Of a stretch of 64,000 nucleotides of DNA, positions 1,429-61,860 are shown one piece after another (positions within the stretch are counted from its first letter, which is position 1; each line of letters opens with the position of its first letter). Location of the stretch: assembly GCA_963805825.1 (NCBI GenBank), contig CAWDVO010000022.1, positions 79,641 to 143,640 on the forward strand. Reading direction: 5' to 3'. The notes beneath the pieces are model-generated. The model made no database searches, was not told the DNA's origin, and saw only the letters and a list, made by a program, of their open reading frames with translations. The DNA is from Candidatus Brocadiaceae bacterium (GTDB taxonomy: Bacteria; Planctomycetota; Brocadiia; SM23-32). A program made the translations under genes and the position numbers.

Positions 1429-1468
1429 GTGCCGCCGCACGCACTTACCACTCTTGGCGAGGATGCGT

Positions 1469-3155: not shown

Positions 3156-3295
3156 CGGGGCTGCCCGTCCGGGGCGTCCGTGCTGAAGCCCAGGCCGCCC
3201 CGGTAGAAGCGGATCGAGACGGCCGTGTCCCGGACGCCGAGGGAGATGATGCTGATGCGCGGCTCCGTGCCGCCCCTCCTGCCGCCCGCCCCCGC

Positions 3296-13172: not shown

Positions 13173-13174
13173 CC

Positions 13175-14560: not shown

Positions 14561-15270
14561 CAGCTCTCTCTCCGTGTTGACGCGGCCCTGGCCCTCCCTG
14601 CAGCGCGGCCCATCATAGCCCCGTCGCCGGCGCCGAGCTCAACGCCCCTGCCCGTGGTCTCCGCGTCGACACCCCCGCCTTGCGCGGCACCTTCGGCACC
14701 CACCTCATCGGGACCTATGGAGGCAGTATTGCGCTCTTGCCCCCCTCCCGTGGACCCTGAGCCAGAAGCGCGCCTCGCCTCCGCGTAGCAGAAGCGCGTC
14801 TGGAAACTCAGGAAGCCATGCGGGCCGGGTTGCACGGGAGGCAGCCCGGTCTCCGCCCAGACCTCCTTGCTGAATCCCACGAACCCGCCCGTCTCCGCAC
14901 CCCGAAGCTCCCATTCGTCGCCCACCACCCGCTTGGTGAACTCGGCACTTTCGCCCGCTGTGGGGTTCACCGGCCCGACGTCGTCGAATTCCGCCGGCGG
15001 GTCCAAAGGACGACCGTTAACTTGGTTCACCATGAAGACGGGCAAGGCAGCCTTCTGCGGAAGCGGTGCCGTCCAGATCCCGCGCACGGTGGCGAGTTCG
15101 CCGAGCGGCAGGCCAAGTCTGCCGACAACCTTCACCCGCTCGGGGATATCGCTCCAGCGCACCACCCGTAGCTGCTCCTTCTGCCCACAGCCGGTTGAGA
15201 TCGACGCCAGAAGCACCAGCAGACACGCAGCAGCCAACCCAGCCAACATGCGTGAGGTGGGCAGGATCAT
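14560..15270 (-). CDS. putative lipoprotein of unknown function (signal peptide with LASISTGC lipobox); disordered Gly-rich tail
   Basis: 236 aa, MILPTSRMLAGLAAACLLVLLASISTGCGQ... Stop overlaps the oxidoreductase start by 1 nt (operon). The C-terminal 70 aa are low-complexity G/A/R-rich and may be partly spurious. Confidence 0.5.
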   Translation of the reverse strand: MILPTSRMLAGLAAACLLVLLASISTGCGQKEQLRVVRWSDIPERVKVVGRLGLPLGELATVRGIWTAPLPQKAALPVFMVNQVNGRPLDPPAEFDDVGPVNPTAGESAEFTKRVVGDEWELRGAETGGFVGFSKEVWAETGLPPVQPGPHGFLSFQTRFCYAEARRASGSGSTGGGQERNTASIGPDEVGAEGAAQGGGVDAETTGRGVELGAGDGAMMGRAAGRARAASTRRES

Positions 15271-22837: not shown

Positions 22838-22845
22838 AGACACGA

Positions 22846-24078: not shown

Positions 24079-24094
24079 CTGTCACCTCCTCCTT

Positions 24095-25045: not shown

Positions 25046-25125
25046 AAGTCACCTCCCTTTGGCATTTGGCTCAGCCTTGGCCGAGGCAGCGGTGCTGGCC
25101 GCGACCGATGCTGTTACTCAGTGGC

Positions 25126-26322: not shown

Positions 26323-26977
26323 CTGCGTGCTCCATGGCAGCCGGCGACACGGCCATGTGTTCCAGGCGCACTTGCCCCTTGCTGCAGACCCAATGGCTGC
26401 GGGTGCCCGGCCGGGCTGTGGGCTCGTGCTGAGAGGTGAGGTCCGAGAGGAAGCCCTCCATAAGGGACTTCCGCATCTGGCATCTCAGCGCGAATGCACG
26501 GTCGTCGCTGGCAGCCGCAGGGCCGCCCCCAGCCAGCAGGTGGCATTCGCCGCCACAGAAGTAACGGAGCGCGCACTCCCCGCACTCAGTCCTCAGGGAT
26601 GGGGCCTGGTCTGCCGGTTCGAGCAGGGACCTCCAGCGCTCCTCTGACTGCGGTGCCAGTTGTGACGGTCTTCGGCGGCATTCCCATAAACAGCGCCCAA
26701 CGCGGCCGTCGCCATGCACGTAGACCGCCAGCCCGCACGCAGCCCGGCATCCGTGACAGTTCGGGTAAGCCCCGAGCCGCTTTCGCAGCAGTTGGTACAG
26801 TGTGTTCTGCGTCAGCGGAGGCCTGTCGCTGCCAACAACGTGGTCAAGTATCTGCTGGATCTGATCGGGCGCGGGCAATTGAAGCTCGGTACGCCGCTGC
26901 CGGTATCTCTGGCGTGCGAAGAGGTATGCTAAGAGAATAGAGGAAGCTCTCCCCCCACCTGTCCCAGAGCGTATCAA
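26309..26977 (-). CDS. Cys-rich protein with SPASM-like motifs but no recognisable radical SAM core
   Basis: 222 aa with NCHGCRAACGLAVYV...CLWEC...CGECALRYFCGGEC. Overlaps the 287-aa gene by 134 bp and the rSAM start by 14 bp. Could be a stand-alone accessory protein or the 3' half of a frameshifted gene. Confidence 0.4.
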   Translation of the reverse strand: MIRSGTGGGRASSILLAYLFARQRYRQRRTELQLPAPDQIQQILDHVVGSDRPPLTQNTLYQLLRKRLGAYPNCHGCRAACGLAVYVHGDGRVGRCLWECRRRPSQLAPQSEERWRSLLEPADQAPSLRTECGECALRYFCGGECHLLAGGGPAAASDDRAFALRCQMRKSLMEGFLSDLTSQHEPTARPGTRSHWVCSKGQVRLEHMAVSPAAMEHADANV

Positions 26978-27707
26978 GCGCCTCGCGAAGAACGCCGGAT
27001 GTGCGTCGGCTCAACACGAAAACGACGTTCAACAGAAAACCCCGTTCGATAAGGTAGTCGAGCCCTGATAGATGCTCTTCGCGCAGGATGCCACTGAGGA
27101 AGAGGCTCATGCGCACGTTCGGAACAATGAACATGCTGAGCTTCTTCACATCGGAAACCGCCACCTGCAAAGGCATGTCAAGGTAGTATGTGATTGGCCT
27201 CTGCGGCCCTCCGCCGAACGCACGACGGATGAAGGAGACCACAGGGACCAGTCTGTCATACAGCGACTTGCGGGCGTCAACACGGTTACAGATGAACTTA
27301 ACGTTGATTGGAGGCCCGCCAGGAAAGATGTCCCTGCATGCTTGCGCGCACGCCTCCAGCGAACGAAGCACCTGGCGCCGATTTGTCTGCGTGGTATCGA
27401 TGCGGATTGTCAGCGGGTCCGGACCGCGACTGTCTTGAGCGTCGCGTGTGCCGTTACAGGGAGCTGAGTCCCCGTCATGCTCAGGAACTATGATCCGATG
27501 GTCAGAGAGGAAGGAAATGAGGCCAGTCGCCAAGCTACCCAGATCACCAGCGCGTAGTGAACTCAACAGCGCTTCCGCCTCGCTGCCGCGGGCCACGGAT
27601 AGCGACAGGATGGAATTCCGACTGATTGAACAAGTAGCAAGTGCCGTCCGCGCTGTGGTAGGCCACGAGCCGGCCGGCTGTTCGGAAATGCTTCGCCGCG
27701 GACTCAC
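26844..27707 (-). CDS. hypothetical protein, first gene of the radical-SAM operon
   Basis: 287 aa, no recognised motif (one C-x3-C, CAQACRDIF). Start at 27707 lies 28 bp from the terminal IR of the IS427-like element. Confidence 0.4.
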   Translation of the reverse strand: MSPRRSISEQPAGSWPTTARTALATCSISRNSILSLSVARGSEAEALLSSLRAGDLGSLATGLISFLSDHRIIVPEHDGDSAPCNGTRDAQDSRGPDPLTIRIDTTQTNRRQVLRSLEACAQACRDIFPGGPPINVKFICNRVDARKSLYDRLVPVVSFIRRAFGGGPQRPITYYLDMPLQVAVSDVKKLSMFIVPNVRMSLFLSGILREEHLSGLDYLIERGFLLNVVFVLSRRTSGVLREALDTLWDRWGESFLYSLSIPLRTPEIPAAAYRASIARARSDPADT

Positions 27708-27735: not shown

Positions 27736-28750
27736 AGGGCTCTGTAGAAAACCTACGGATCGGTAGTTAGAGGATCATGAGGTCGTGTGTCAGGACGCGG
27801 ACATAGCACTCGGCGTGACGCATGGCCCGCTTGCGCGCTCTGAGGCTGTCGCCCAGCCGCCGCTTGTGCTGGCTGATGGCGCTCTCGACGTGCGAGCGTT
27901 GGGCGGCCTTGCGCACCGGGAAGTGGCTCTTCATCTGACGCCTGTAAGGGCCCTTCGGCCTCACCTGCGGCCGTCCTCGGTCGTTGATGGGGATGATGGT
28001 GCAGGCGATGCCCAGCTCTTCCCTGCACAGACGGTGATGGGCCTCCGAGTCGTAGGCCGCGTCGGCGTAGAGGGTGTGGATGCGGAGCCGGCCTGCGGCC
28101 GCCCGCACCAGCGGCGGCAACAGGGGCGACTCGTTGCCCGGGCCGGCCCGCGCCAGGGCAGAGGCAAACATGTGCGTGCTGTGCTCGCAGAGCAGGGCCA
28201 GGCGCGGGAAAGGCGTGTAGCTCGAGGTGCGCCGTCCCGTGCGGCGCAGGTAGTAGGGGCTCACATGCCCGCTCTCCAGTCCCGTGGCGTCGACGGAGAC
28301 CTCGGCCTGCTGCGGTATCAGTCCGCGCTGTGCCGCGCGGGCGAGAGCAGCATCGAACAGAGGTCCCCAAAGCCCCTTTTTTCCAGGCGCTGCTGGGCCT
28401 TCTGCACGGTGGTGAGATGGGGGAGCTTCTTCAGGTGCAGGGCGTCTCTGAGCGCAGGCAGGTCGGCCAGCAGCTGCACCATGCCCCGCCAGTCGGTCTT
28501 GAAGAACTGCCGCAGCACCATGATGGCGAAGAGCTGGGAGAGCGTGAAATCGTGGCGCGAGCTGCTGCTGCCATAGCGTGGCAGGCCCTCCTCGCCGAGG
28601 GCGAGGGCCTCCTGGGCGAGGGCCAGCGGGGACTTGCTCATGCTGCGCGAACTGGGCATCGGCCGGCTCCCGTAGGGAAGTCTCTGTGGCCATAGCTGCT
28701 TTACTTGTGCCCATTCGCCGACCCCTAAGTCAAGTTTTCTACAGAGCCCT
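27736..28750 (-). mobile_element. IS5-family (IS427-group-like) insertion sequence, 1015 bp, perfect 17-bp terminal inverted repeats AGGGCTCTGTAGAAAAC, flanked by CTCAT direct repeat
   Basis: Left AGGGCTCTGTAGAAAAC at 27736-27752. Right GTTTTCTACAGAGCCCT at 28734-28750 is the exact reverse complement. CTCAT at 27731-27735 and 28751-28755. Two overlapping transposase ORFs inside. Confidence 0.75.
27767..28659 (-). CDS. IS5-family transposase, orfA and orfB joined by a putative -1 frameshift at an A6G run
   Basis: orfA (about 114 aa from ATG 28659): ...SSRHDFTLSQLFAIMVLRQFFKTDWRGMVQLLADLPALRDALHL (DUF4096/InsH N-terminal-like). orfB in the -1 frame has a DDE domain ...VSVDATGLESGHV...LYADAAYDSEAHHRLCREELGIACTIIPINDRG. 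Slippery site CTGGAAAAAAGGGG on the minus strand (A run = complement of 28377-28382). Confidence 0.7.
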
Positions 28751-47984: not shown

Positions 47985-49187
47985 CTAGCCCACGAGCGCG
48001 CTCGCGCGGAAGACGGGGAGAAGTATGGCTGCGACAACGAAGGCCACCATCCCCGCCAGCACTATGATCAGCCCCGACTCAACCAGTTGCGCCAGCCCAC
48101 TCGCAGCTGCCTCGACCTCCTGCTGATAGAACGACGCCACATTCAGAAGCATCCTGTCGAGTGACGCCGATTGTTCGCCCACGGCGACCATGTTCACCAA
48201 CGAATCAGGGAACCCCTCCTGCTCTCGCAGCGCCTCCGCCACGCTGACGCCCTCACTCACCCTGTCCCGGACCTTGATCACCTGCTCCGCGATCACTGCA
48301 TTCCCGACCGTCTCAGCCGCAACACCGAGGGCCGGCAGCACCCGGACGCCGCTCGAACAGAGGCTGCCGAAAGTCCCCGCAAAGCGGGCTGTCTCGACGC
48401 GCCTGATGAGCCGGCCAAAGTAAGGCGTGCCCAACAAGAGCCCGTGCCAAAGCCTCCTGCCCGAGCCCTGCCGCGTCGCACGGTACAGCCCCACAGCTGC
48501 CAGGAAGAGCGCGGGGCCGGCATATGGACCGTAGCTCTGGGCAGACCGGCTCGCACTCAGAAGCATCCGCGTGGCCAGGGGCAAGCGTTGCCCGTAGGAG
48601 GCGAAGAGCACCTGGAACTTCGGGACGACCACGACGAGAAGCAGAGATACTACTATGACGCCTACGACGAACAGGAACACCGGATAGAGCAATGCCGAAC
48701 GCATCCTGACTCGGGCTGCCTGCTGCCTCTCGGCCGTGTCAGCAAGCTGGCCGGCGGCCTCCGCCAGGCGCCCGGTGAGTTCTCCCGCCGATAGGATGCT
48801 GGCGCTCACCGGACCGAATGTCCCTCCAAGCTCCCTCACGGCCGAAGACAGTGACACTCCGCGCGAGACTGACTCGTGCAGCATCTGCACGGCCCGGCGA
48901 ACGTGCGTGCTCTCACACTGGGAGGCCGTGCTCTGTAGGGCCTGCACGAGGGGAAGCCCCGCTGTCAGCAGGCTCTCCAACTGGCGCCAGAACACCGCCG
49001 CATCCCTCGTCTTCGCCCTGCCCAACTTACTCGGCTTGCCGAAGGCCCCCGTCGGCTCCGCAAGTTCAAGGATGCTCAGGTCCATGCCCTTGAGCACCGC
49101 GATGGCGTGCGCCCGGTCCGCCGCGTCTACGGTGCCGGCCACTATCCGCTCCGGCCCCTTCTTCGCCCTATATGCGAACGATGGCAC
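47985..49187 (-). CDS. gspF: T2SS/T4P inner-membrane platform protein GspF/PilC family
   Basis: 400 aa. Duplicated GspF domains (LLTAGLPLVQAL, LLYPVFLFVVGVIVVSLLLVVVVPKF). 3 TM. Confidence 0.75.
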   Translation of the reverse strand: MPSFAYRAKKGPERIVAGTVDAADRAHAIAVLKGMDLSILELAEPTGAFGKPSKLGRAKTRDAAVFWRQLESLLTAGLPLVQALQSTASQCESTHVRRAVQMLHESVSRGVSLSSAVRELGGTFGPVSASILSAGELTGRLAEAAGQLADTAERQQAARVRMRSALLYPVFLFVVGVIVVSLLLVVVVPKFQVLFASYGQRLPLATRMLLSASRSAQSYGPYAGPALFLAAVGLYRATRQGSGRRLWHGLLLGTPYFGRLIRRVETARFAGTFGSLCSSGVRVLPALGVAAETVGNAVIAEQVIKVRDRVSEGVSVAEALREQEGFPDSLVNMVAVGEQSASLDRMLLNVASFYQQEVEAAASGLAQLVESGLIIVLAGMVAFVVAAILLPVFRASALVG

Positions 49188-49202
49188 TGCACGCGCTCCG
49201 CC

Positions 49203-50921
49203 CTATTGGTCGTCAGACTGCGTAACCCTCAGGACCTCTTCGACCGTTGTGACGCCCTTCCTCACCTTCTCCCAGCCGGCCTGGCGAAGGGTCCTCATGC
49301 CTTCGGCCAGGGCCGCCCGCAGGATTTCCGTGGAGGGGCTCCGCTGGAGCGTAAGCTCCCGTATTCGCTCTGAATTCACCAGTGTCTCGTAGATCGCCGT
49401 CCTTCCACGGTAGCCCGTGAGCCGGCAGTATTCGCATCCCCTGCCGGTGTACAGGACATCAGTGCCGGCAGTCTGCTCTGGGGTGCCAAACGCCTCCAAC
49501 TCCTGTTCCCGAGGGGTGTAGGCTTGCCGACAGCGGGGGCAGATAGTGCGCACGAGACGTTGGCTGATGGTGGCCAGAAGGGAGCTCGAAATCAGATACG
49601 GCTCAATGTCCATGTCGAGCAGCCGGGTCACGGCACCGGCGGCGTCGTTCGTATGTATCGTGCTGAAGACGAGGTGTCCGGTGAGCGCCGTGCGTATGGT
49701 GATCTGTGCCGTCTCCGGGTCGCGAATCTCGCCGATCAGCATCACGTCGGGATCGTGCCTCAACATAGACCTAAGCGCCCGCGCGAACGTGAACCCGATG
49801 TGGGGAGCGACCTGCATCTGCTGGACGCCCTCCATCAGGTACTCGACGGGGTCTTCGATGGTGATCACCTTCTTGTCAGAGGAGTTGACCCTGTTCAGAC
49901 AGGCATACAGCGTCGTGGTCTTGCCACTTCCGGTGGGCCCCGAAACAAGGACGATACCGTGCGGCTTCTTGAGCAGATCCCCCACTTTCTCCAGATCAGG
50001 CGTGTCCAGTCCGAGGGAGGGCAGGTCGTCGAACACCGGCCTGCGAGGGAGGATTCGCAGGTTGACCGCCTCGCCCCAGGATACGGGAAGGACCGACACG
50101 CGCAGGTCGAACTCCTCATCTCCCGTCCTGACGTGCGTCCGGCCGTCTTGGGGCAAGCGCTTTTCCGCGATGTCGAGGTTGGACAGCACCTTGATGCGGG
50201 AGATGATGGCATTCCGGAAGTGCTTGGCGCCGCGCGGAACACCCGCCTCCCGCAGCATGCCGTCAACGCGGTAACGTACCCGCAGTTCGCTTTCGTACGG
50301 TTCGAGATGGATGTCGGTCGCACGCTCGCGGATGGCATCGAGGATGATCTGATTCACAAGCTTGACGACAGAGGCCTTCTGGACCTCGCTCTCTTCCTCC
50401 AGGGTGCCCTGGACCGCTGCAGAGTCCTCAACGATGAGTTGGCCCTCTTCATCACCGATCAGCCCCTCGATCGTCTCGGCACCGACACCGTAGACGCCTC
50501 TGGAAGTCTTGGTGATGGCATCCTTGCAGGCCAAGGCCAGGCGCACGTCGCAGCCCAGTACCAGCGATACCTCATCCAGCACGTCGCTTCTGAACGGGTC
50601 GTCAAACGCGACCTGGAGGCGCCCTCCTTCAAGCGAGAGGGGGAGGATCCCGTAGCGCTCCGCCACCTTCGCGGGGACCCGTTGCACGGACTGCGGATCG
50701 ACGGTGCCAGGGGACGGCTCGACGTACTCAAGCCCCAACTGGGCTGCTGCACGACGCAGGAGCTTCGCCTCCTGGACCAGACCCAGGTTGACGAGGAGTT
50801 CCTTCGGCGACTTCCCAGATGAAGCTGCTTCCGCTTCGACTGCTGCCAGTTGATCCTTCGGGATCCCAAGCAAGTCGTCTCCAAGTATGCTACGAGACCA
50901 TGCGTTGACGCCGACGTTCAT
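49203..50921 (-). CDS. gspE: T2SS/T4P assembly ATPase GspE/PilB family
   Basis: 572 aa. N1/N2 domains. Walker A GIVLVSGPTGSGKTTTLYA. His box GHLVFSTIHTND. Tetracysteine CPRC...CEYC. Confidence 0.85.
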   Translation of the reverse strand: MNVGVNAWSRSILGDDLLGIPKDQLAAVEAEAASSGKSPKELLVNLGLVQEAKLLRRAAAQLGLEYVEPSPGTVDPQSVQRVPAKVAERYGILPLSLEGGRLQVAFDDPFRSDVLDEVSLVLGCDVRLALACKDAITKTSRGVYGVGAETIEGLIGDEEGQLIVEDSAAVQGTLEEESEVQKASVVKLVNQIILDAIRERATDIHLEPYESELRVRYRVDGMLREAGVPRGAKHFRNAIISRIKVLSNLDIAEKRLPQDGRTHVRTGDEEFDLRVSVLPVSWGEAVNLRILPRRPVFDDLPSLGLDTPDLEKVGDLLKKPHGIVLVSGPTGSGKTTTLYACLNRVNSSDKKVITIEDPVEYLMEGVQQMQVAPHIGFTFARALRSMLRHDPDVMLIGEIRDPETAQITIRTALTGHLVFSTIHTNDAAGAVTRLLDMDIEPYLISSSLLATISQRLVRTICPRCRQAYTPREQELEAFGTPEQTAGTDVLYTGRGCEYCRLTGYRGRTAIYETLVNSERIRELTLQRSPSTEILRAALAEGMRTLRQAGWEKVRKGVTTVEEVLRVTQSDDQ

Positions 50922-52015
50922 GTCGCATACCGATAGCTAGTGCGCTTCTGCGGCTCTCTCTCGCCTCCGAGTGGGCCGGAAGACGCGTATTGACTACTGT
51001 GAATGGGCGCCCTCAAAACACCTATTGCCATACCTTCTGCTTTGTAGTAACATGATGGGCCTTTCGATCCTGACCGTGGTCTCGGCCAGCGAGCCCAGCC
51101 GCGACAGAGGGGTATGGGTGCGTCGTGTGAAGCAGGCCCGCTGGCCCTTCCGCCACAAGAGCCGCATGTGACGCGCCCAGCGCCCTCGTTCGAAGCCTGT
51201 CCACTTAGTGAGCACTCTCGGCGGCGTGTCACGCGGCAGGCTACACCCCCAGGGCTACCCCGAAACCACTGCGGAGCCCCCCGCGAACGAGGCCCACGCA
51301 GCGGGCGCGGAAGGCCCCGGCCGCCCAGATCGGCGGGCATCTGGACACCAGGACAAGCCCCTCCGCAGGGCCGCGCATCTTTCCTTGGCGCTGTCCCCAT
51401 GGGACGGCAAGGGCGGCCCTGCAACGTAGCGTCATGAACTCCCCATCGCGCCCGAGAACCAGGCCGCCCTTCTTGTGCGGCTGACTCGCGCATCCGGGGA
51501 CGGCGAGTAGCCCGGCGGCGGCTACCGAACATAGCTCCGCCGTTGACGCTCAAAGGGTCAGGCCGACAGGGGAAGAAGAGACAAGGGCCAGTACGCCTGG
51601 AGGCGGCAGAGGGGGATAGGGTGCACCGCCTGAGCCAGCATAGCTGGCCCCTGTTTCGGTGGGAGGACTCGTCGTATGACTTCTCTGGCGCATTTCGCGA
51701 CAGACGGAACTCCTGGGTCAGAGACTTCTTCGATGCGGCCTGATGTAACGGCGGTTCGTGCCGCCAAGGTGCACCGTACGGATCTCTCGCATTGGTGCTT
51801 AGTGAAGCGGGGCGGCGAAACGTCACGCGCTGAGTTGGACGACCACGCCAGAGGCAAACACCTTGCCCATTCTCTCTGCCGCGCACAAGTCACCAGTGGC
51901 CACCGGTGGAGACTGAGCGGACAATCGGAAACGCTGCCTCTCATACGGACGACCGCGCAAGCGACATGGCTGGTGTCGTAGCGAACGTTGCAGGCTCCAC
52001 ACGGCCAGAACGCAG

Positions 52016-53764
52016 TCAGCGATTCGCCGCCTCGGGAGTTCTCTGATCGAACAGCTTTACCTCACCGTCCCCGACCTCAAGGATCAGGTCGCAAGCGTCT
52101 CGCGGCGGAAGGCGATGGCCCGCAACAAGGATCGTCCGCTTGCCCGTCAGCGCCTCCAGGGCCCGCCAGAGCTGCGCTTCTGTGAGGCGGTCGACGTTGG
52201 CGAAGGGCTCGTCGAGGAGCAGAATGGGGCTTTCCTTCAGAAAGGCCCTCGCCAGGGTCAGACGGTGAGCTTGGCCGGCCGACAGACTCACGTGCTCGGA
52301 TTCCAGATGGCTGTCCAATCCGTCGGGCAGATCCTCGACGAACTCATGGGCGCACGCAAGCTCAAGTGCTTGCACGACTTCTGCAGCGGAGGCAGATGGT
52401 CGCCCATAGAGCACGTTCTCCATTACCGTCCCTGAGAAGAGGGTGGCCTCCTGCGGCGCGACGCTGACGAGACTCCGGACCTGACGGGGCGAAAGACGCG
52501 AGAGCGGCTCGTCTCCGAAGAAGACGTCGCCGGTGTGGCACTCGCAAAGGGCACTGCAGAGCCTGAAGATAGTGGTCTTTCCCGCACCGCTGGCCCCGAT
52601 GAGCACGGCCAGGCGCCCGGCAGGCACCTCGAAGTCTGCGTCGCTCAGGACGGCGGCGGCCGTTCCATAGGAAAACGTGACGTGCGAGAACCTGACGCCA
52701 AGCGCACGCGTGGAGGACGTCCGGCGCGGCAGTGCCCTCGTGCTCTCCTGGGGTTGCCGCAGGAACTGCAGCACCCGGTCCCCGGGAGCCAGCCCTGCGA
52801 TGAGCCGTTGGAGTATGGACGCGAACGCCAGGAACGGGGAGGCAACCATGCCAAAGTACATGGAGAATGCGACCGCGGACCCCAGCGTCATCGAGCCCCG
52901 AATGACCATGAGCCAGCCGGCGCACATCAGCACGAACGGCGGCCCGGACTCCAGGAACCACTGGATCTGGCTGAGCGTTCGCTCCCGTCGCCAGAGCCGA
53001 AAGTCCGCACGAATGGCAGGCTTCGCCTCGGCCGCGTAGCGGTGGAACTCCCTGGTCTCTTGGCCGAAGAGCTTCGCAAGAGGGAGAAGACGGATCGCCT
53101 CGAGGAGAACTCCGCTCGCCCTCGCGCGGACGTCGCGGAGGTCGCGGCGCAGAGGGAGGAGCCTGCCGCTGGAGAAGACACGGAACAGGCAAAGGGCAGG
53201 CAGCAGCATCAGGTACGGCACTGCCAGATCCCATCTGAGCCTCACCATGATGAACGCGGCGATGACCAGCGTACAGCCGTTGTTCAGCAGAGAAGGGAAG
53301 ATCGAGAGGATCATCTCCGCCACCGCCTCAAGGTCCGACATCATGCTGAAAGTGTGTTCGCCCGGACGTTTCGCCTGGATCCCCGATAGCGGCAGAGAAC
53401 TCAGGTGACGGAAGTAGGCCACTCGAAGCCGCCACTTCACCCACGAGGACAGGTACAGGGAGAGGTATGACTGCAGGAGCCTCAGGCCCTGTATGACGAG
53501 CAGCGCACCGGCACAGACCCCGATGAACAGGTAGAAAAGGGGGAGGTCCCTGCGGGCCAGGATGTCGTCGATGATGTACTTGCTTACGAACGGGGTGAGC
53601 GCCTGGACCGCACTGCCCAGACCGCCCAAGAGGACGACAAAGGCAAGTTTGCGGCGGTAGGGCCGCAGATGGGGCATGAAGGCCCGCACCATGCGAACCG
53701 ACGAGGTCAGGGCTGCTATGGTGCCACTCGTTGCAGTCACTCGATGTGCGGGCTCCGGAGACAA
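52016..53764 (-). CDS. ABC transporter, fused permease-ATPase exporter (type I ABC exporter)
   Basis: 582 aa. 6 TM N-terminal domain. Walker A GASGAGKTT. Signature LSAGQAHRLTLARAF. Walker B ILLLDEP. Confidence 0.8.
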   Translation of the reverse strand: MSPEPAHRVTATSGTIAALTSSVRMVRAFMPHLRPYRRKLAFVVLLGGLGSAVQALTPFVSKYIIDDILARRDLPLFYLFIGVCAGALLVIQGLRLLQSYLSLYLSSWVKWRLRVAYFRHLSSLPLSGIQAKRPGEHTFSMMSDLEAVAEMILSIFPSLLNNGCTLVIAAFIMVRLRWDLAVPYLMLLPALCLFRVFSSGRLLPLRRDLRDVRARASGVLLEAIRLLPLAKLFGQETREFHRYAAEAKPAIRADFRLWRRERTLSQIQWFLESGPPFVLMCAGWLMVIRGSMTLGSAVAFSMYFGMVASPFLAFASILQRLIAGLAPGDRVLQFLRQPQESTRALPRRTSSTRALGVRFSHVTFSYGTAAAVLSDADFEVPAGRLAVLIGASGAGKTTIFRLCSALCECHTGDVFFGDEPLSRLSPRQVRSLVSVAPQEATLFSGTVMENVLYGRPSASAAEVVQALELACAHEFVEDLPDGLDSHLESEHVSLSAGQAHRLTLARAFLKESPILLLDEPFANVDRLTEAQLWRALEALTGKRTILVAGHRLPPRDACDLILEVGDGEVKLFDQRTPEAANR

Positions 53765-53921
53765 GGGTTGGCGGCCCTATCGCGCAGCTTCGATCTCTGG
53801 CACCTGATCGCCGGATGGCATGGGAATCCACCCCTGCGCCGCATCGAAGCCGACATGCACTTACCGCCTGCAGGTTGGCGCGGGAGGGTCGACTGACACC
53901 TGCTGTCGAAGGGGACTTCTC

Positions 53922-55448
53922 TCACTGCAGCGGGGCCTCATAACGCGGAGCCTTGGGGCAGGCCGGATGGGGCGCAAAACGGGTGCCATAGGCCTTATAC
54001 TGCAGCATCAGGCATCCCCCCTTCAGCACCTGGCATCTGTCGAACTCCTCGCACTCTGAGCAAGGAGTGCCGGCGTAGTCCGCATGGCGGGCCTCCTTGA
54101 ACCGTCGCATCGTTTCCGACTGCCAGACATCCACCAAACTGCAATTGGTCACGTTCCCGACGATGAACTCGTCATCCTGAGGCGACTGCTCACACATCGT
54201 CACTCGGCCGTCGGGCGCAACGATGATGGTCTCTCTGCCTGCTCCACACCTGGGGAAGTCGCGGAACGCCGCCGACCGCTCGCCCTCGTCCATGTCCAGG
54301 TAGTCGGACCGGCACTCGAACTTGATCTTGCCCTCCGGGTACTCCTGCTGAAGGATGGCGACCTGCTCCCGCAGCCACCTCTTCTGCACCTCCGTCAACA
54401 GCAACCCTTCGCGATGGCGGTGGGCCGACCTGAAGGCCGACGCGATCTTCATGTCGCGCAGAGGGAGCGTGTGCAGCAGAGCGACCAGTTCGCGGACGTG
54501 CGAATGGGTATCCTGAACGAGGATGCTGTTCGTCCTGCATGCAATCCCCGCCTCCGCGCAGTTCGTGATTGACTCCAGCGTCCGACGGAAATGCCCTTTC
54601 CTACCCACCACGCGGTCGAACAACTCGGGGTACGGGGCGTCGAACCCGAACTGCATGGTCCGGATGCCGGCGTCGTAGAGCTCCCGAGCGCGGGACTTCG
54701 ATACGTACGCTTTGGTCGACAGGTCGACGCTGAGCCCCTTCGAGACCGCATAGCCGAGCAGTCCAGTGATGCCCTTGCGGCAGAGAGCGTCCCCGCCGTC
54801 GACGTTCACTGAGCATACCCCGATAGCCGCGGCCTCGTCCATGAGTCCCTTGACCCTCTGGTCGGAAAGTCGTGCCGACGCGGGGACCGGTCTTCGCGTG
54901 GCGTAGCAGTAGACGCAGTCCGTCTGACAGACGTCCGTGGGCATCCAGAGCATCGTGATGGGGGCATCGAGTTCGGCCGTGAGTCGCACCTCTGCACCAG
55001 GTATCACGTAATCCCGAGGGTTGTAAGCCCTGAAAGGGCGTGACGGATAGACTTCCCGGCTGAACAGGCCCGGCGCCGCAGGGCCGAAGGCGTCCACGGT
55101 GGCCAGCGCTTTCCTCACCTTGAAGTCGTTCAGCTCCTTGCTCCCGCCGCAGTGCTCCCGCAGGAGTGCCGAGACGTCATCGAGCGTGCGGGAGCCGTTC
55201 AAACACGCAACGACAACCGCCAGGCCGGGGTTGAGCCGACGCGACCAGACGTCAAGGAAGGTCGCCCCGTAAAAGACCACCTGCGCACGGTCCCGGCGCA
55301 GCCGAGCCTGCTCGGAGATGGCGAGTCGGGTGTCACCCCGCATGCCGAACGCGCGGTGCTGCTCTTCCAGCGAACTCAGGCACCCTTGCTCGGTCCATGC
55401 CCTGAAGAGCTCCTCGTCGATCGTGGGTTCAGCGGTTCGTTCGTCCAA
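53922..55448 (-). CDS. radical SAM / SPASM-domain peptide maturase with about 170-aa N-terminal extension (possible RRE-like substrate-binding domain)
   Basis: 508 aa. CQTDCVYCY (C-x3-C-x2-C) at about residue 180. SPASM CEQS...CSECEEFDRCQVLKGGC. Confidence 0.75.
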   Translation of the reverse strand: MDERTAEPTIDEELFRAWTEQGCLSSLEEQHRAFGMRGDTRLAISEQARLRRDRAQVVFYGATFLDVWSRRLNPGLAVVVACLNGSRTLDDVSALLREHCGGSKELNDFKVRKALATVDAFGPAAPGLFSREVYPSRPFRAYNPRDYVIPGAEVRLTAELDAPITMLWMPTDVCQTDCVYCYATRRPVPASARLSDQRVKGLMDEAAAIGVCSVNVDGGDALCRKGITGLLGYAVSKGLSVDLSTKAYVSKSRARELYDAGIRTMQFGFDAPYPELFDRVVGRKGHFRRTLESITNCAEAGIACRTNSILVQDTHSHVRELVALLHTLPLRDMKIASAFRSAHRHREGLLLTEVQKRWLREQVAILQQEYPEGKIKFECRSDYLDMDEGERSAAFRDFPRCGAGRETIIVAPDGRVTMCEQSPQDDEFIVGNVTNCSLVDVWQSETMRRFKEARHADYAGTPCSECEEFDRCQVLKGGCLMLQYKAYGTRFAPHPACPKAPRYEAPLQ

Positions 55449-55512
55449 TGTGTCCGCTTCCTAAACTGGCCAATGGAGAACAGACCTGAGGAAGGAGGCG
55501 CCTCCACGGCGC

Positions 55513-56610
55513 TCACTCATCCGAGGAGCGGACCCCGTTGACGGTGAGGTCGGTGAACCATTCCTCGCCCCGCAGTTGATAGCCCATGTAGTACCGCACA
55601 GTGTGCTCAGGGTAGTAGATGCCGCCCACGTTCCGGTACTGGATAGCCATCGCATCGTAGATGGACGGCTCCCCGGATTTCGCGTTGACCTGCCTGGCCA
55701 CGACGAAGTCGGCCATCCCGGTCTCGTGACTGAACCAGAACCCCTTCTCCAGTTCGGGAGGGGCGTCCACCAGCATCGTGATGACGTCGTATTCGGTGGC
55801 CCTGGCACCGGCAGTGAAGGCCTCAAGGCCCGGCAGCTTCAGGTCCATCCGCCGGCCCTGGTCGATGCCGTCCCCATACTTCAGAAGCACGGCAACCTGC
55901 AGTAAGCTCTCCCCGTCCAGGTAGGCTGGCACCCAGCTCTCGCCCACCCCGAGGGTGCCGTTGCTTGTCTTGCCGGCGGGTGTGATAAGCTCCGACACAT
56001 CTCTTCCCTCGCTGATGGAGCCTTCCATTCTGAAGTACGCCGGTGACCGCGTCGCCTCGACGGCAACGGACCAGTTGTCCGCAGCGGCACGTGATTGCAT
56101 TGCAGCGCTCGTCGGGGTGTCCTCGGCTGCGGTTACAACTCTCCTGTGGTGGAGGGAGAGCGAGCCGATGTGCGAGAAGTTGCGTTCATACCGGAGGAGT
56201 ATGGGCTCCGCCTTCGCGAAGTCCTCTTTCGAGAAGCCCTCCGGGACACCGTCGAAACGAGGTCGGCGCCACACCGTGGGGACCGGCTCGGAGACCGTGC
56301 CGTCGACAAGACCGGGCAGTTCGATCCCCACCGCATCTGACAGAGGAGCGGGACCAGGATGTGGCTGCTCCGGGGCTCCGGGACGTAGGGCGTGCGTGTC
56401 ATCCGTCTCGCGACCCGCCGGCACCTGCTGTTCACTCTCCACAGGCACCGGGCCACGCACACTGCTTTGTGGCGCGAAAGAGAACAGGTAGAACAGAAAG
56501 AAGACGATCGCCAGGCAGACACCGCCAGCCAACAAAACCCTTGCCCTCACCTTGCCCTCCACGTCAGCAGGAATCTCCTCGGGCTCCGCCGCGCACCGTA
56601 CGCTCTCCAT
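55513..56610 (-). CDS. bitopic membrane protein with large periplasmic domain, paralogous to the C-terminal domain of the anti-sigma factor at 57251..59137
   Basis: 365 aa. TM LLAGGVCLAIVFFLFYLF. Periplasmic ...ELITPAGKTSNGTLGVGESWVPAYLDGE...EYDVITMLVDAPPELEKGFWFSHETGMADFVVARQ...YRNVGGIYYPE aligns with EIVTPVGKISNGYFGAGESAIPAYLDGE...RYDVIALTAKTSGAVSEYWFNEATGMLDYCVARY...YQDVGGILYLE. Confidence 0.6.
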   Translation of the reverse strand: MESVRCAAEPEEIPADVEGKVRARVLLAGGVCLAIVFFLFYLFSFAPQSSVRGPVPVESEQQVPAGRETDDTHALRPGAPEQPHPGPAPLSDAVGIELPGLVDGTVSEPVPTVWRRPRFDGVPEGFSKEDFAKAEPILLRYERNFSHIGSLSLHHRRVVTAAEDTPTSAAMQSRAAADNWSVAVEATRSPAYFRMEGSISEGRDVSELITPAGKTSNGTLGVGESWVPAYLDGESLLQVAVLLKYGDGIDQGRRMDLKLPGLEAFTAGARATEYDVITMLVDAPPELEKGFWFSHETGMADFVVARQVNAKSGEPSIYDAMAIQYRNVGGIYYPEHTVRYYMGYQLRGEEWFTDLTVNGVRSSDE

Positions 56611-56864
56611 GTGTATCAGCCGTCAACGCGACCAAAGCCGTCAGCCTAGCGCGCTGTGTTCGCCTCAAGCCGAACCGATACAGCTGCCGCAACTGCACGT
56701 GCCAGCGCTGCCGGCTAAGCGAGCAACCGCTGCGTACGGGGGAGGTGGTTCGCTCTCGGCAGCCAAGTTCGGCGAGACGGGTGCCTCGGAATCTCGCGGT
56801 CCGTGCCGTACCAAGCGGGGTACCGTCTCGGGCCACTGCCCTCCCCCAGAACAAACGCGCCATG

Positions 56865-57146
56865 TCAGTCAGCCTGTCCTCGAGACAGATGGCTGCAGTC
56901 ACCGACCGCACACACAGAAACCATCGCGTCCCCGCCCGAGCCGTTGGTGCAAGCGCCGTCAATACAGGCGTGCGAAGGCACGCCGCAGGCACTGCCGCCG
57001 CAGGACACCCTGCCGGCGCACACCAGTGTATTGCAGCCGAAGTTGAGCGGGCAGAGAGATGGACACGTGGTGCTGTCAGCGGCTCCGCCCAAAGCACTCA
57101 GTCCCAGGTCCACAAAGAGGCCTCCCAGCAATTGATCGAGTGTCAC
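56865..57146 (-). CDS. Cys-rich small peptide (93 aa, 11 Cys), candidate radical SAM/SPASM precursor (SCIFF/ranthipeptide-like); GTG start
   Basis: Translation (GTG)TLDQLLGGLFVDLGLSALGGAADSTTCPSLCPLNFGCNTLVCAGRVSCGGSACGVPSHACIDGACTNGSGGDAMVSVCAVGDCSHLSRGQAD*. Strong SD GAGGGGAGGAAG 5-6 nt upstream of GTG (complement of 57144-57146). The ORF track shows it as an M-initial ORF. Confidence 0.55.
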   Translation of the reverse strand: MTLDQLLGGLFVDLGLSALGGAADSTTCPSLCPLNFGCNTLVCAGRVSCGGSACGVPSHACIDGACTNGSGGDAMVSVCAVGDCSHLSRGQAD

Positions 57147-57250
57147 TCGCTTCCTCCCCTCTTGGCGCTCGCATGGAGATGGTCAGAACCGACGCCTGTC
57201 ACCGTTCTGCCGCAGGTTCCGGCTGCGCGGGCGTACCGTTCACCACCAGG

Positions 57251-59137
57251 CTAGTTATGGTGTCTTCGCGCTTTATTTCTTCCGAATAGTTGCACCAGGC
57301 CCATCGCTTCCAGGTACAGGATGCCTCCCACATCCTGGTAACCGAAGGCCAATGCCTCGCGCAACGCTCCTTTCCCGCCGTCGACTGCCGGGTAGCGGGC
57401 GACGCAGTAGTCCAACATGCCCGTCGCTTCATTGAACCAGTACTCCGAAACGGCGCCTGACGTCTTCGCCGTCAGGGCGATCACATCGTATCTCGAGGCT
57501 GCCTGAGAGCTGACGTACTCCTCAAGCCCCGGCAGGTCTTCGGTCATTGCGACTCCTGTCTGCACGCTGTCCGCTCGCCCCATCAGGTCGCTCACATTGA
57601 AGCGCAGCTCTCCGTCCAGGTAGGCGGGGATGGCGCTCTCACCTGCGCCAAAGTACCCGTTACTGATCTTGCCCACCGGCGTAACGATCTCGCTTATCGG
57701 CGCGCCTCTTCCGTCCTGGCCCAACATCTGGAGGAAGAGCGGTTGGCGAGTGGCCTCGACGTCCAACACGAAGCTCATGTCGTCCAGAGGGCCGCGACTG
57801 CCGCTCCCGCTGAAGTGGGCCGCTTCTTGCCGGCGCTGGAACGATACGGACGATATTCTCGCGAAGTTCGCGGCATAGCGGGATAGCGTGCTCTTGGCTG
57901 TCCGCAGGTCCGAACGAGACAACTCCTCGGACGGCCCCAGCCGCGGCCTGCTCCACGCGAGCGGCTGCAGATCCCCTATCTCCTTATCCACGAAATCCGA
58001 CAGGACTCCGCCCTCTACCGGTTCCGTCTGCGTCACAGTGTCGCCGGCTGTCGACGAGGGCGCTGGCTTGCTGGCACCAGCAGCGGGTGGCCGGGGCAGG
58101 GTTCTTCGTAACAGGAACTCAGCGAGAGCGTTCGCGTCCTCGAGATGCGCTGTCCAGCTGACTTCGGACGAAACATCCGCCTGGGCCGACGGTATAAGTC
58201 TGTCGGTGCCAAGAACACTGGCCATCCCACCGGCAAGCACATGGGTCCAGTCGGATGGCTTGGTGGATGCCGCAACGCGTGCGCTTCCCCGCAGAAGGAA
58301 CACGTCTGTCTGTGCCGGAGCTGCCCGAACGTCCAAGATGGTGCCAGTGACGCCGACAACCGCATTGTCCGTCCTGATGCTGAAGGGGTGCCCGGGGACC
58401 ACCTCCAGATAGACCTCGCCTGCCACGAGTTGGACGGCGACGCCCGCCGGACCAAGCCTCCCGTCCGCCGGGTGCGCTGCTATGCGAGTGAACACAGCCC
58501 TGCTGTGCGCATTGAGGATGGCCCGGTGCTTCCCATCGAGCAGTATTTCCTGTGCGTCGTCCCCGGTGCTGATGTCGTTACCCCTGACAGCCACCCTCTC
58601 TCCAGACGACGTCAGGAGCGCGACGAAATCGCCCTCCCCCCCCTGCTCCGGTGCATCCGCACTTACAGTCGGAGTCGGACGCGGAGCCAGGAACCCACCG
58701 TGAGTGATAATCAGCAGAGCAGTTCCCACCGCCAGCAGCAGGGAAGCTGCCACGGCAAGCGCAACGTGTGGTCGGCGCCAGATGGTGCGTGCGGAGGGGT
58801 CTCCACTGACCTCAGCCTTCCCCCTCCCTGTCGCGCCGGATTCTCCGGCGGCCCTCTCCCTCCAGCCGCCCGCCGCGGCGTGCCCTGCCTCAACTCCGGT
58901 ACGGCGCGCCAGCGCACGTAGGGTCCTGGGATGGAGGCTTCCCCACCTCGTCCGAAGGAACGGGACCAGTCTGGCCGTCTCCTCGTAGTCGGTGCGACAA
59001 ACGGGGCACACCTCCAGGTGGCTCTCAAGCGCCTCCCTGTCGGCCTGTGTGAGGTCCGGGTCAGACTCGATGTACAATGACAGCAGCAGCTGTGCCTCAC
59101 AGCACTTCAGCGTCCGCTGGTCTTCGTTACTGCCCAA
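57251..59137 (-). CDS. anti-sigma factor: N-terminal ZAS zinc-finger, TM helix, FecR-like domain and extra C-terminal domain shared with the 365-aa protein
   Basis: 628 aa. H-x3-C-x2-C (HLEVCPVCRTDYEE). TM ALAVAASLLLAVGTALLII. FecR-like GEVYLEVVPGHPFSIRTDNAVVGVTGTILDVR. Confidence 0.7.
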   Translation of the reverse strand: MGSNEDQRTLKCCEAQLLLSLYIESDPDLTQADREALESHLEVCPVCRTDYEETARLVPFLRTRWGSLHPRTLRALARRTGVEAGHAAAGGWRERAAGESGATGRGKAEVSGDPSARTIWRRPHVALAVAASLLLAVGTALLIITHGGFLAPRPTPTVSADAPEQGGEGDFVALLTSSGERVAVRGNDISTGDDAQEILLDGKHRAILNAHSRAVFTRIAAHPADGRLGPAGVAVQLVAGEVYLEVVPGHPFSIRTDNAVVGVTGTILDVRAAPAQTDVFLLRGSARVAASTKPSDWTHVLAGGMASVLGTDRLIPSAQADVSSEVSWTAHLEDANALAEFLLRRTLPRPPAAGASKPAPSSTAGDTVTQTEPVEGGVLSDFVDKEIGDLQPLAWSRPRLGPSEELSRSDLRTAKSTLSRYAANFARISSVSFQRRQEAAHFSGSGSRGPLDDMSFVLDVEATRQPLFLQMLGQDGRGAPISEIVTPVGKISNGYFGAGESAIPAYLDGELRFNVSDLMGRADSVQTGVAMTEDLPGLEEYVSSQAASRYDVIALTAKTSGAVSEYWFNEATGMLDYCVARYPAVDGGKGALREALAFGYQDVGGILYLEAMGLVQLFGRNKARRHHN

Positions 59138-59335
59138 CGGAATGGGCTCCCTTCGGGATTTGCACCTTGATGTAGCTTAGTGACGGGTGGGGGGCCGGTG
59201 TCACGAACTTGCCTGGTCCCCCGGCCCAAAATCCGGCGGGTCTACCGGGTGTCCGTACGCACCCCAGCCCTCCGGCGAGACAGGGGGGTCCCGCTCTTCA
59301 CGAACGAACCGAGAGGCCATGCGCGGGTACCTCCC

Positions 59336-59932
59336 TCAGCGCCATAGGGTCATCCCCGTGATCAGGAAGACGGCAGTCCCCCTTAGCAGTTCTCGGAGGG
59401 CTTTACGGGCCCTGTACAATCGGTTGCGGAACTGGTTGGGGTTACAGTCGGCCATCTCAGCAGCCTCCCCAACCGGGATCTCCAACACATGGACCAGTTC
59501 AAAGGCCTCACGCTGCTCGGGCGTCAAGTGAGACTTGGCACGTTCGATGGCCGCGGCCGTTTCCTCTGCTTCCAGGCCCCTGCTCTCATCGGTCCGTCGT
59601 CCTTCCACTTCATACTCGACATCATCGAATGAGACCGCCGCTCTGCGGTGTCGACCACGCACATTCTCTCGGAGGACGTTCTTCGCGATGCCCAGAACAT
59701 AGGTCTTCACCGACGAATCGCCGCGAAAGCGCTCTCTGTGCTCCCACAGCCGCACAAAGACCTCTTGCACAAGTTCTGGCAGGTCGCTCCGACTAACGCC
59801 AACGGCGCGACTGCTGAGGAAGTCGCGCACAACAGGAGAATAGACCCGGTAGATGTCCTCAAACGACCCGTCAGGACACCGGTCGGCGCTCCCCAAAGTG
59901 CGGTCTCCCTCATTGTCGGCTGGAGGTGCCAT
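59336..59932 (-). CDS. ECF (sigma-24-type) RNA polymerase sigma factor
   Basis: 198 aa. Region 2 FEDIYRVYSPVVRDFL...VQEVFVRLWE. Region 4 LTPEQREAFELVHVLEIPVGEAAEMADCNPNQFRNRLYRARKAL. Confidence 0.8.
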   Translation of the reverse strand: MAPPADNEGDRTLGSADRCPDGSFEDIYRVYSPVVRDFLSSRAVGVSRSDLPELVQEVFVRLWEHRERFRGDSSVKTYVLGIAKNVLRENVRGRHRRAAVSFDDVEYEVEGRRTDESRGLEAEETAAAIERAKSHLTPEQREAFELVHVLEIPVGEAAEMADCNPNQFRNRLYRARKALRELLRGTAVFLITGMTLWR

Positions 59933-60709: not shown

Positions 60710-61860
60710 GTACCTGGTTGCGTTAGTTTGCGTATGTTGGATTGAGGGCCTTCGGGCCCACGTTCCGCTTCGTCCACTCGAAGGGGGCGGCCTGTTCGTT
60801 ATGCGCTTCGACATAGGCATCTATCGCCTGGCGCACCTGGCGAGTGTGCGTGAAGCTGCGCGGCTTCAGGGCGTGCCGCGTCAGCAGGCTGAACCATATC
60901 TCGATCTGGTTCAGCCACGAGGCGTGCGTCGGGGTGTAGTGGAAGCGCACGTTCTTGTGCCGGGCCAACCAGCCGTCGTGTCGGGGCTTGTGGGTGCTCA
61001 GGTTATCGAGGATCACGTGGACCTCCTCGTCGGGGTGGTCGGCGAGCAGCTCGTTCATGAACTCCAGGAACTCCCTGCGGCGTCGGCGCCGGAAGTGGCC
61101 TGCCTTGACCAGGCCCGTGGCGACCTCCAGGGCGGCGAAGAGCGTGGTGGTGCCGTGCCGCTTGTACTCGTGGCTGTAGCCCGTCATGGCCTTGCCGTTG
61201 GGCAGCCGAAGCCACCCTTGCGCGCGCTCCAGAGCCTGGATGTGGGGCTTCTCGTCCACGCACAGGACCAGAGCATTCTGGGGCGGATCCAGATAGAGCC
61301 CCACGATGTCGGCGGCCTTGCGGGCGAACTCCGGGTCGGTGCTCACGCACCAGGAGCGGCGCCTCTGCAGGTGGATGCCGTGGCGGCGCAGCACGCGCCA
61401 GACCTGGTCGGCGCTCACGTCGCCCAGCCGCTTTGCCAGCAGGCTGCCCGTCCAGGTGGCGTAGCCCTTGGGCGGGGGGCTGTCGAGCGCCTCCAGGATG
61501 CGCCGCTCGGCCGCCTGTCTGTAGCGGGCGGGTTTGCCCGAGCGCGGGGCGTCCGAGAGCCCCGCCAGGCGCTCGGCGGCGAAGCGCGTGCGCCACTTGG
61601 AGACGCGCGCGGCCCGCGTGCCGAGTTCCCGGGCGACCTCTTCGTTGGTGGCCCCGTCGGCCAGGCGCAGGATCATGCGCGCCCTCTCTGCCGCCCGATG
61701 CTCGCTGGTGCCGCAGCGCACCCAGGACTGGAGCACCGTGCGTTCCTCCTCGCTCAACGAGATCTCCGTCCCCTTCACCATGCCATCGTCCCCTTTCTCA
61801 GCCCATTCGGACCTCGGCCAGGGACGATTATATCATACGCTAACTAACGCTGGCAAGTAC
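60710..61860 (-). mobile_element. IS630-family insertion sequence (1151 bp) with ~30-bp terminal inverted repeats and TA target duplication
   Basis: Left TA(60708-9)-GTACCTGGTTGCGTTAGTTTGCGTATG. Right CATACGCTAACTAACGCTGGCAAGTAC-TA(61861-2). About 25/30 of the IR is complementary. Confidence 0.75.
60723..61781 (-). CDS. IS630-family (Tc1/mariner-like) transposase
   Basis: 352 aa. HTH N-terminus (LSEEERTVLQSW...ATNEEVARELG). DDE_3 core (LVLCVDEK...HVILDNLSTHK...YTPTHASWLNQIE). Confidence 0.8.
   Translation of the reverse strand: MVKGTEISLSEEERTVLQSWVRCGTSEHRAAERARMILRLADGATNEEVARELGTRAARVSKWRTRFAAERLAGLSDAPRSGKPARYRQAAERRILEALDSPPPKGYATWTGSLLAKRLGDVSADQVWRVLRRHGIHLQRRRSWCVSTDPEFARKAADIVGLYLDPPQNALVLCVDEKPHIQALERAQGWLRLPNGKAMTGYSHEYKRHGTTTLFAALEVATGLVKAGHFRRRRRREFLEFMNELLADHPDEEVHVILDNLSTHKPRHDGWLARHKNVRFHYTPTHASWLNQIEIWFSLLTRHALKPRSFTHTRQVRQAIDAYVEAHNEQAAPFEWTKRNVGPKALNPTYAN

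Follow-up and report, generated by a model that had tools for sequence, protein, structure and literature searches.

A candidate radical SAM/SPASM peptide operon with a cysteine-rich precursor, a LolA-like partner and sigma factor genes in a Brocadiaceae contig

Introduction

The DNA considered here, called the window throughout, is a 64,000-nucleotide stretch of contig CAWDVO010000022.1 from a Candidatus Brocadiaceae bacterium. A gene unit on its minus strand (positions 52016-59932) is very probably a functional operon for a peptide that is made on the ribosome and altered after translation (RiPP), belonging to a rare and undescribed family of radical S-adenosylmethionine (rSAM)/SPASM systems. 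The order of genes is ECF (extracytoplasmic function) sigma factor, anti-sigma factor, Cys-rich peptide, LolA-like protein, rSAM/SPASM enzyme, and ABC (ATP-binding cassette) exporter. An earlier note, made from the sequence alone, had proposed that the peptide, the maturase and the exporter form one system. That grouping stands, but the note missed the LolA-like gene, the ECF sigma/anti-sigma pair and the absence of a leader protease. It had also described the rSAM gene as adjacent to that of the peptide, whereas a 365-aa open reading frame (ORF; 55513-56610) sits between them.

The precursor peptide

The peptide gene (56865-57146, minus strand) encodes 93 aa. As the earlier note had recognized, it begins with GTG (57146-57144) and has a strong ribosome-binding site, a Shine-Dalgarno region read from the sequence as GAGGGGAGGAAG (57150-57161, minus strand) in which GGAGG lies 6 nt before the start codon. 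The full translation is MTLDQLLGGLFVDLGLSALGGAADSTTCPSLCPLNFGCNTLVCAGRVSCGGSACGVPSHACIDGACTNGSGGDAMVSVCAVGDCSHLSRGQAD. Residues 1 to about 25, MTLDQLLGGLFVDLGLSALGGAADS, form the leader, and the core that follows contains 10 Cys, not the 11 that had been counted; the motifs CIDGAC, CAVGDC and LGG, also cited in that note, are all present. The Cys residues are located at positions 28, 32, 38, 43, 49, 54, 61, 66, 79, and 84, so that the gaps between them are 3, 5, 4, 5, 4, 6, 4, 12, and 4 residues (four gaps of nine being of 4). Gly-Gly pairs occur at residues 8-9 and 20-21, and the second of these sites is SG, GG or GA in the relatives described below.

The codon usage comparison that had been suggested as a check was carried out and is not decisive. 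The GC content at third codon positions (GC3) of the small ORF is 0.68, in comparison with 0.73-0.81 in its neighbors (0.67 in the sigma factor gene), so composition alone cannot decide its coding status. More informative is a profile hidden Markov model (HMM) built from 13 homologous peptides of other loci, from which the window peptide was left out to avoid circularity. This HMM matched just one of the window's 1,444 six-frame segments, namely the 93-aa ORF (E 2.2e-6; next best 0.12), and an HMM of the leader only also matched it (E 2.1e-4; next best 0.66). The ORF is absent from the ENA gene call of the same contig but was called in one Logan assembly (P0028). No family match for the peptide was found in Pfam or NCBIfam.

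The gap between the peptide and LolA-like genes contains a 49-aa ORF with a TTG start (56665-56814, minus strand), which ends in ARLAGSAGTCSCGSCIGSA (TCSCGSC). This ending recalls the leader-core junction of the relatives (..SLSG..CTCxxCG), and the ORF was considered as the remnant of a second precursor; the peptide HMM, however, finds no match in it. It is probably a chance frame, or possibly a decayed second precursor.

Precursors in related loci

A protein search with the rSAM enzyme returned only 16 close homologs (47-69% identical, about 505-513 aa), all of them metagenomic, whereas the next matches were only 25% identical. The contigs of these homologs, together with three more obtained from a scan of JGI metagenomes, constitute the related loci compared here (numbered L003 to L094), and they were scanned in six frames for Cys-dense segments. 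All nine distinct loci with sequence upstream of the rSAM gene contain between one and three homologous small ORFs of 82-121 aa, mostly immediately 5' of that gene: three copies in L092, two each in L005 and L011, and one each in L006, L007, L008/L094, L009, L010, and L093. The genomes that bear these peptides differ widely in GC content.

The homologs align with the window ORF from residue 1, its GTG corresponding to the Met start of all of them. They share the leader consensus M-S-L-x-x-L-L-G-G-x-x-x-x-F-x-(L/I)-P-(S/A)-L-(S/G)-G. The alignment keeps M1, L3 and six Cys without exception, and between its Cys residues the core is otherwise hypervariable. Across the family, 82 of the 130 Cys-Cys gaps have a spacing of four residues. 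Two subtypes can be distinguished: the peptides of the window, L010 and L011 have 10 Cys with irregular spacing, while those of L005-L009, L092 and L093 contain 16-18 Cys in a near-perfect Cx4C register, with 9-11 successive gaps of four in relatives of the L005-L009 type. The leader and Cys framework are thus conserved in nine distinct loci and, together with the HMM match, this supports the earlier proposal that the small GTG-started ORF is a real precursor of a Cys-rich peptide, predicted to be modified.

Comparison of close pairs of loci indicates how the core changes. The two tandem precursors of L011 have near-identical leaders and different cores. The peptides of L010 (6347-6610) and L011 (4458-4724) are 83% identical, while the flanking sigma and anti-sigma factors reach 96-98%; for L006 and L009 the values are 47% for the peptide and 89% for the anti-sigma factor. 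All Cys are kept in both pairs. The faster divergence of the inter-Cys residues suggests diversifying selection on a scaffold whose Cys register is fixed.

Gene callers often skipped the precursor ORFs of the relatives or took the wrong frame, and a word-indexed protein search with the peptide profile recovered only three called proteins. Automatic annotation misses precursors of this type, as the locus also illustrates.

The radical SAM/SPASM maturase

The maturase gene (53922-55448, minus strand) has a TTG start and encodes 508 aa. Pfam assigns to its product the families Radical_SAM (PF04055, 61 bits, cut-off 29.5) and SPASM (PF13186, 45 bits, cut-off 21.5), and TIGR04085 is matched with 43.6 bits against a cut-off of 27. 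The CxxxCxxC motif (C174/C178/C181; 54906-54929, minus strand) is invariant in 15 homologs, as are eight Cys of the SPASM region (C379, C401, C419, C463, C466, C472, C479, and C497; 53958-54314, minus strand) in the same alignment. In contrast, the enzyme misses all NCBIfam equivalog cut-offs. Its best scores are those for MftC (109 bits, cut-off 265) and PqqE (101 bits, cut-off 381), and lower values are obtained for StsB (55.8, cut-off 625), SkfB (52.5, cut-off 300) and AlbA (42, cut-off 850). PapB, SCIFF and QhpD are outside the 25 best families for the full-length protein, and the SPASM fragment alone scores 17-29 bits with them. The nearest solved sequence is PqqE.

About 173 residues precede C174, in agreement with the approximately 170 aa that the earlier note had estimated ahead of CxxxCxxC and regarded as the usual place for a precursor-recognition element. 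The RiPP recognition element (RRE) is a domain that binds peptide leaders. The N-terminal 160 residues are kept in the family, with R51, D53, Q56, Y60, F64, L65, G85, and L115 invariant. They have no Pfam match in the window maturase, and the Pfam PqqD model matches none of 14 family members. However, a predicted RRE with the winged-helix fold of PqqD occupies residues of about 38-120 (55089-55337, minus strand). In the AlphaFold model (pLDDT 83), residues 41-117 begin with four strands, after which come three helices; a single short strand separates the first helix from the second. The best Foldseek matches of the maturase are SuiB (E 2e-16), which is itself an RRE-rSAM-SPASM enzyme, SkfB, PqqE, and CteB. 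An hhalign alignment of the N-terminus with a PqqD sequence that matches the PDB entries of PqqD gave a probability of 55% over β3-α1-α2. The predicted topology, the fold matches and this alignment together support an RRE at the N-terminus, a reading that the routine domain scans do not provide.

A helix motif within this domain, rLTPaqAvvlAllDGkRTLddvsaLL (residues 69-97; within 54969-55448, minus strand), resembles the 34-residue repeat of transcription activator-like (TAL) effectors, with a summed E-value of 1e-9. When a HMMER profile of the maturase N-terminus was compared with the PDB, its only matches were TAL-effector repeats. These matches were rejected as spurious: each stretch has an E-value above 100 and the significance results from summing over 12 repeats, so that the summed values are misleading.

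The family is rare. About 20 maturase homologs are found among 5.8 billion protein clusters, all of them metagenomic and from uncultured bacteria. A pattern search of the GTDB species representatives returned no relative of the maturase, although the patterns do match the window's own sequence; neither the source genome nor its close kin are thus part of that collection.

The LolA-like protein and the regulators

The 365-aa protein encoded between the peptide and the maturase (55513-56610, minus strand) has a transmembrane helix at residues 15-45, a disordered linker, and a folded domain spanning residues of about 110-365. No sequence match was found for it in Pfam, NCBIfam or PDB. Its AlphaFold2 model has a pLDDT of 84, exceeding 90 over the domain, and Foldseek relates it to PDB entries 3bk5 (an outer-membrane lipoprotein-sorting domain, E 8e-7) and 4z48 as well as to DUF1329, LolA3, LolA, LolB, LprG, LppX, MucB, and RseB. 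For 3bk5, 4z48, LolA, LolB, LprG and MucB the Foldseek probability is 1.0, with TM-scores of 0.47-0.52 on the target. According to the model, the domain has the open beta-barrel fold of the LolA superfamily, and the protein is predicted to be membrane-anchored. An ortholog is present in every related locus with sequence upstream of the rSAM gene. The protein is represented by only 35 cluster representatives in 1.84 billion proteins.

The anti-sigma factor (57251-59137, minus strand; 628 aa) is a membrane protein composed of a zf-HC2 domain (Pfam, 3.9e-6), a transmembrane segment at residues of about 121-147, a FecR domain (5.6e-11), and a C-terminal LolA-like domain (residues of about 343-610). 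Its C-terminal 260 aa are 36% identical to the 365-aa protein (E 4e-45), so that the two are paralogs. Anti-sigma factors of the FecR/zf-HC2 type, accompanied by sigma factor genes, also precede the cluster in L006, L009, L010, L011, and L092, where they lack the LolA-like fusion. The first gene of the unit (59336-59932, minus strand) encodes a 198-aa ECF-type sigma-70 factor with Sigma70_r2 (1.3e-11) and Sigma70_r4_2 (3.2e-11) domains in Pfam and a TIGR02937 score of 82.9 bits (cut-off 42.9). L010 and L011 have a sigma factor gene at the equivalent place.

The analogy with RseB and MucB makes it probable that the role of the LolA-like domains is to sense or to handle the exported peptide.

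The available annotations of these genes differ. The ENA call (L001, 6313-8198) splits the 628-aa anti-sigma factor into proteins of 174 and 447 aa, leaves the LolA-like protein with only 345 aa and lacks the precursor, while the NCBI record contains the 628-aa and 365-aa versions.

The ABC exporter and conservation of gene order

As the earlier note had proposed, the next gene in line after the maturase (52016-53764, same strand) encodes a 582-aa ABC exporter in which permease and ATPase are fused. Pfam identifies ABC_membrane at residues 42-309 (2.7e-30) and ABC_tran at residues 373-522 (1.1e-23). No C39 peptidase domain was found on the window protein, in which ABC_membrane begins as early as residue 42 and PF03412 has no match. 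An orthologous exporter lies 3' of the rSAM gene in seven loci (L003, L005, L006, L007, L009, L011, and L092). The window protein is 61-63% identical to that of L003 and 32-33% identical, over the full length, to those of L005, L006, L007, L009, and L011. The L003 rSAM enzyme is also the closest relative of the window maturase (69% identical).

The order (sigma)/anti-sigma/LolA-like/peptide(s)/rSAM-SPASM/(S8-like)/(B12-rSAM)/ABC, in which parentheses indicate genes that are not always present, recurs in L005-L011 and L092-L094, and L093 possesses a minimal gene set identical to that of the window. Several relatives carry additional genes: an S8-like protein in L005, L006, L007, L009, L011, and L092, a B12-radical SAM enzyme in L005, L006, L007, and L092, a glycosyltransferase in L007, and a stand-alone C39 peptidase in L003. 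Searches of the window with tblastn found no orthologs of any of these four.

Genomic surroundings and the second SPASM system

The gene for the exporter is followed by a 1.1-kb gap and then by a type II secretion operon with gspE, gspF and further genes. No convincing gene was found in the gap (50922-52015), where the 322-aa ORF of the ENA call is rich in Arg, Pro and Gly and has no family match. The equivalent position of L003 contains five extra genes, including that of the stand-alone C39 peptidase and one for a Cys-rich secreted protein of 133 aa; none of the five has left a trace in the window. Type II secretion or secretin genes adjoin the cluster in three loci: the window (47985-50921 and downstream; gspE/F/G/H/I/J), L003 (8356-9709; gspE) and L008 (3321-4809; DUF1573 and a secretin fragment). 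This adjacency may be mere shared synteny or may reflect a link to the crossing of the outer membrane. As judged by GspE, which reaches no more than 53% identity, the nearest genomic relatives of the host are metagenome-assembled genomes of Omnitrophota, Planctomycetota, Kiritimatiellia, and Verrucomicrobiota. The host is accordingly an uncultured bacterium, probably from the PVC (Planctomycetes-Verrucomicrobia-Chlamydiae) group.

The earlier note was also right in distinguishing two separate SPASM systems in the window. The second one, unrelated to the first, is located at about 21-27 kb (21083-27707, minus strand). Its rSAM/SPASM enzyme (25126-26322) lacks an RRE, is only 21% identical to the 508-aa maturase and resembles PapB and QhpD (PapB family 217 bits, cut-off 340; QhpD 171; SCIFF 128). 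The system further includes the genes for a 316-aa protein that combines a twin-arginine signal with long Cx4-5C repeats (24095-25045), for a tetratricopeptide repeat (TPR) protein (22846-24078), and for a B12-radical SAM enzyme (21083-22924), the last being only 23-25% identical to the B12-radical SAM enzymes of the related loci. The large secreted Cys-repeat protein is the likely substrate, which recalls QhpC/QhpD rather than a small RiPP.

With respect to the window as a whole, GC content drops near 15 kb, where about 0.69 (positions 1-15000) gives way to about 0.62 (15000-64000). The lower-GC part contains three transposase genes, at 18261-19583 (Mutator family), 27767-28714 (DDE_Tnp_1) and 60723-61781 (IS630-like DDE_3), which flank or interrupt both rSAM systems. 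The GC drop and the transposases suggest an island-like, mobile region. No Rfam match was found in the window.

Proposed mechanism and alternative explanations

The following sequence of events can be proposed for the locus. The 93-aa precursor would be made in the cytoplasm, where its conserved leader of about 25 residues would be bound by the N-terminal, PqqD-like RRE of the 508-aa enzyme. The rSAM/SPASM radical chemistry would then modify the core, its most likely outcome being intramolecular thioethers of the sactionine or ranthionine type, in which the thiols of the invariant Cys are joined to carbons of neighboring residues to produce a rigid ladder. The product would be exported by the ABC transporter and its leader removed by a protease encoded elsewhere; S8-like proteins or a stand-alone C39 peptidase are present in relatives, and the window has neither. 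Upon an envelope signal, the operon would be turned on by the ECF sigma factor and the membrane anti-sigma factor. This signal may be the exported peptide, which the LolA-like domains of the anti-sigma C-terminus and of the membrane-anchored paralog would then read.

The formation of sacti- and ranthipeptides by rSAM-SPASM enzymes is established (PMC10114670). Thioether cross-links are favored here, at about an even chance within the overall reading of a RiPP operon, because only Cys is conserved in the core and the class offers a precedent for Cys-to-carbon thioethers. Since the possible acceptor positions are hypervariable, links to Cα of the sactionine type would fit better than side-chain-specific ones. 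Several observations weigh against the proposed scheme. The window peptide precedes the LolA-like gene and does not stand directly before the rSAM gene; its Cys spacing is irregular and its Cys are fewer than in most relatives; and no leader protease was found in the window. In addition, scans for promoters and terminators, for ECF-like -35/-10 motifs, and for k-mers common to the upstream regions of the genes for sigma factor, peptide and LolA-like protein yielded nothing convincing.

The main alternative, a rather unlikely one, accepts the RiPP pair as real and assigns to the rSAM enzyme a chemistry without thioethers, namely C-C cross-links, epimerization or oxidation of Cys. The nearest sequence relatives of the maturase, MftC and PqqE, form C-C bonds, SuiB is its best Foldseek match, and the eight invariant Cys of the SPASM region suffice to ligate both auxiliary clusters fully. 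On this reading the Cys residues of the peptide would act as disulfides or metal ligands, and the product could be a periplasmic metal-buffering peptide under ECF control, functionally similar to the bufferins. With 10-18 Cys per peptide, spare thiols would be left for metal, and bufferin clusters are likewise under the control of an ECF sigma/anti-sigma pair (PMC11626156).

It seems quite improbable that the locus is a divergent member of the Cys-every-fifth family CefA/CefB, already catalogued in NCBIfam. The Cx4C periodicity is the same, both systems have an rSAM/SPASM maturase, and six of eight family peptides match NF038108 (CefA) with a best E-value of 3.1e-6. However, these matches, at 8.6-27 bits, stay under the cut-off of 30 and extend over the Cys-repeat core without reaching the leader, and the peptides of the window and L010 have no NF038108 match at all. 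Nor does CefB (NF038107, cut-off 600) appear in the top 25 families of the window maturase, which places its score below 40.6 bits. The notion that the 93-aa ORF is a chance frame in GC-rich DNA, the rSAM enzyme acting on the LolA-like protein or on a non-peptide substrate, is effectively refuted. It could draw on the GC3 of the ORF, lower than in its neighbors, on the abundance of long spurious ORFs in the window, on the omission from the ENA annotation, and on the separation of the peptide from the rSAM gene. Chance would nevertheless hardly place beside every rSAM homolog with upstream sequence, in genomes of varied GC, ORFs that agree in start, leader and Cys framework, nor provide an HMM that excludes the window peptide with its E-value of 2.2e-6, a strong Shine-Dalgarno sequence at the proper spacing and a maturase with a predicted RRE.

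Significance

The locus adds to the radical SAM RiPPs a well-defined and uncatalogued family with a precursor, an RRE-fused maturase, a LolA-like partner, an ABC exporter and ECF control. Its invariant Cys register and hypervariable spacers make it a good test bed for the choice of cross-link sites by SPASM enzymes, and through the LolA-fold partner one might learn how a diderm cell detects or deals with a modified peptide of its own making. A more far-reaching proposal, which is tentative and which we consider doubtful, is that the family represents a new RiPP class: a multi-cross-linked "Cys-ladder" with up to 18 Cys in Cx4C register, made by an uncatalogued clade of PqqE/MftC-like enzymes and read after export by a LolA-fold sensor acting on the ECF sigma/anti-sigma pair. 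If this were true, the class would be a self-inducing peptide signal or an envelope-defense circuit specific to uncultured bacteria whose closest kin belong to the PVC group.

Comparison with known systems

As judged by sequence, no curated family claims the maturase or the peptide. The closest is the Cys-every-fifth CefA/CefB of NCBIfam, of which the locus is not a member: when precursor and maturase are compared, the two systems share a precursor core of Cx4C pentads and a radical SAM/SPASM maturase, but they differ in the leader, which is unrelated, in the window peptide, which CefA does not match, and in the maturase, which is unlike CefB. Neither the window family nor Cys-every-fifth was found described in searches of the literature.

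The window maturase is far below the equivalog cut-offs of SkfB, AlbA, CteB, PapB (freyrasin), ScfB (SCIFF), and QhpD. In contrast to sacti- and ranthipeptides, the window family has no conserved acceptor such as the Asp of CxxxD repeats, contains many more Cys (10-18), and is accompanied by a LolA-like partner and an ECF sigma/anti-sigma pair. SuiB, the streptide enzyme, is the best match by fold, and MftC and PqqE are the best by sequence. However, SuiB, PqqE and MftC make C-C bonds on Lys/Trp, Glu/Tyr and Val/Tyr motifs, respectively, which are absent from the window precursor. In the biosynthesis of PQQ and mycofactocin, moreover, the RRE is a separate protein (PqqD and MftB), whereas that of the window maturase is fused to the enzyme.

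An ECF sigma/anti-sigma pair controls the clusters of the bufferins, which are RiPPs that contain Cys (PMC11626156). Bufferins differ from the window system in using an MNIO enzyme instead of an rSAM enzyme, in having precursors with a signal peptide instead of a leader for an RRE, and in the absence of an ABC exporter. The regulatory genes of the window resemble RseA/RseB and MucA/MucB, where a periplasmic protein of LolA fold works alongside the membrane anti-sigma factor of an ECF sigma factor. The resemblance does not extend to the sequences, though, and the LolA-like protein of the window is membrane-anchored, duplicated on the anti-sigma factor and encoded within a RiPP cluster. This obligatory LolA-fold partner is without counterpart in the characterized rSAM/SPASM RiPP systems compared here.

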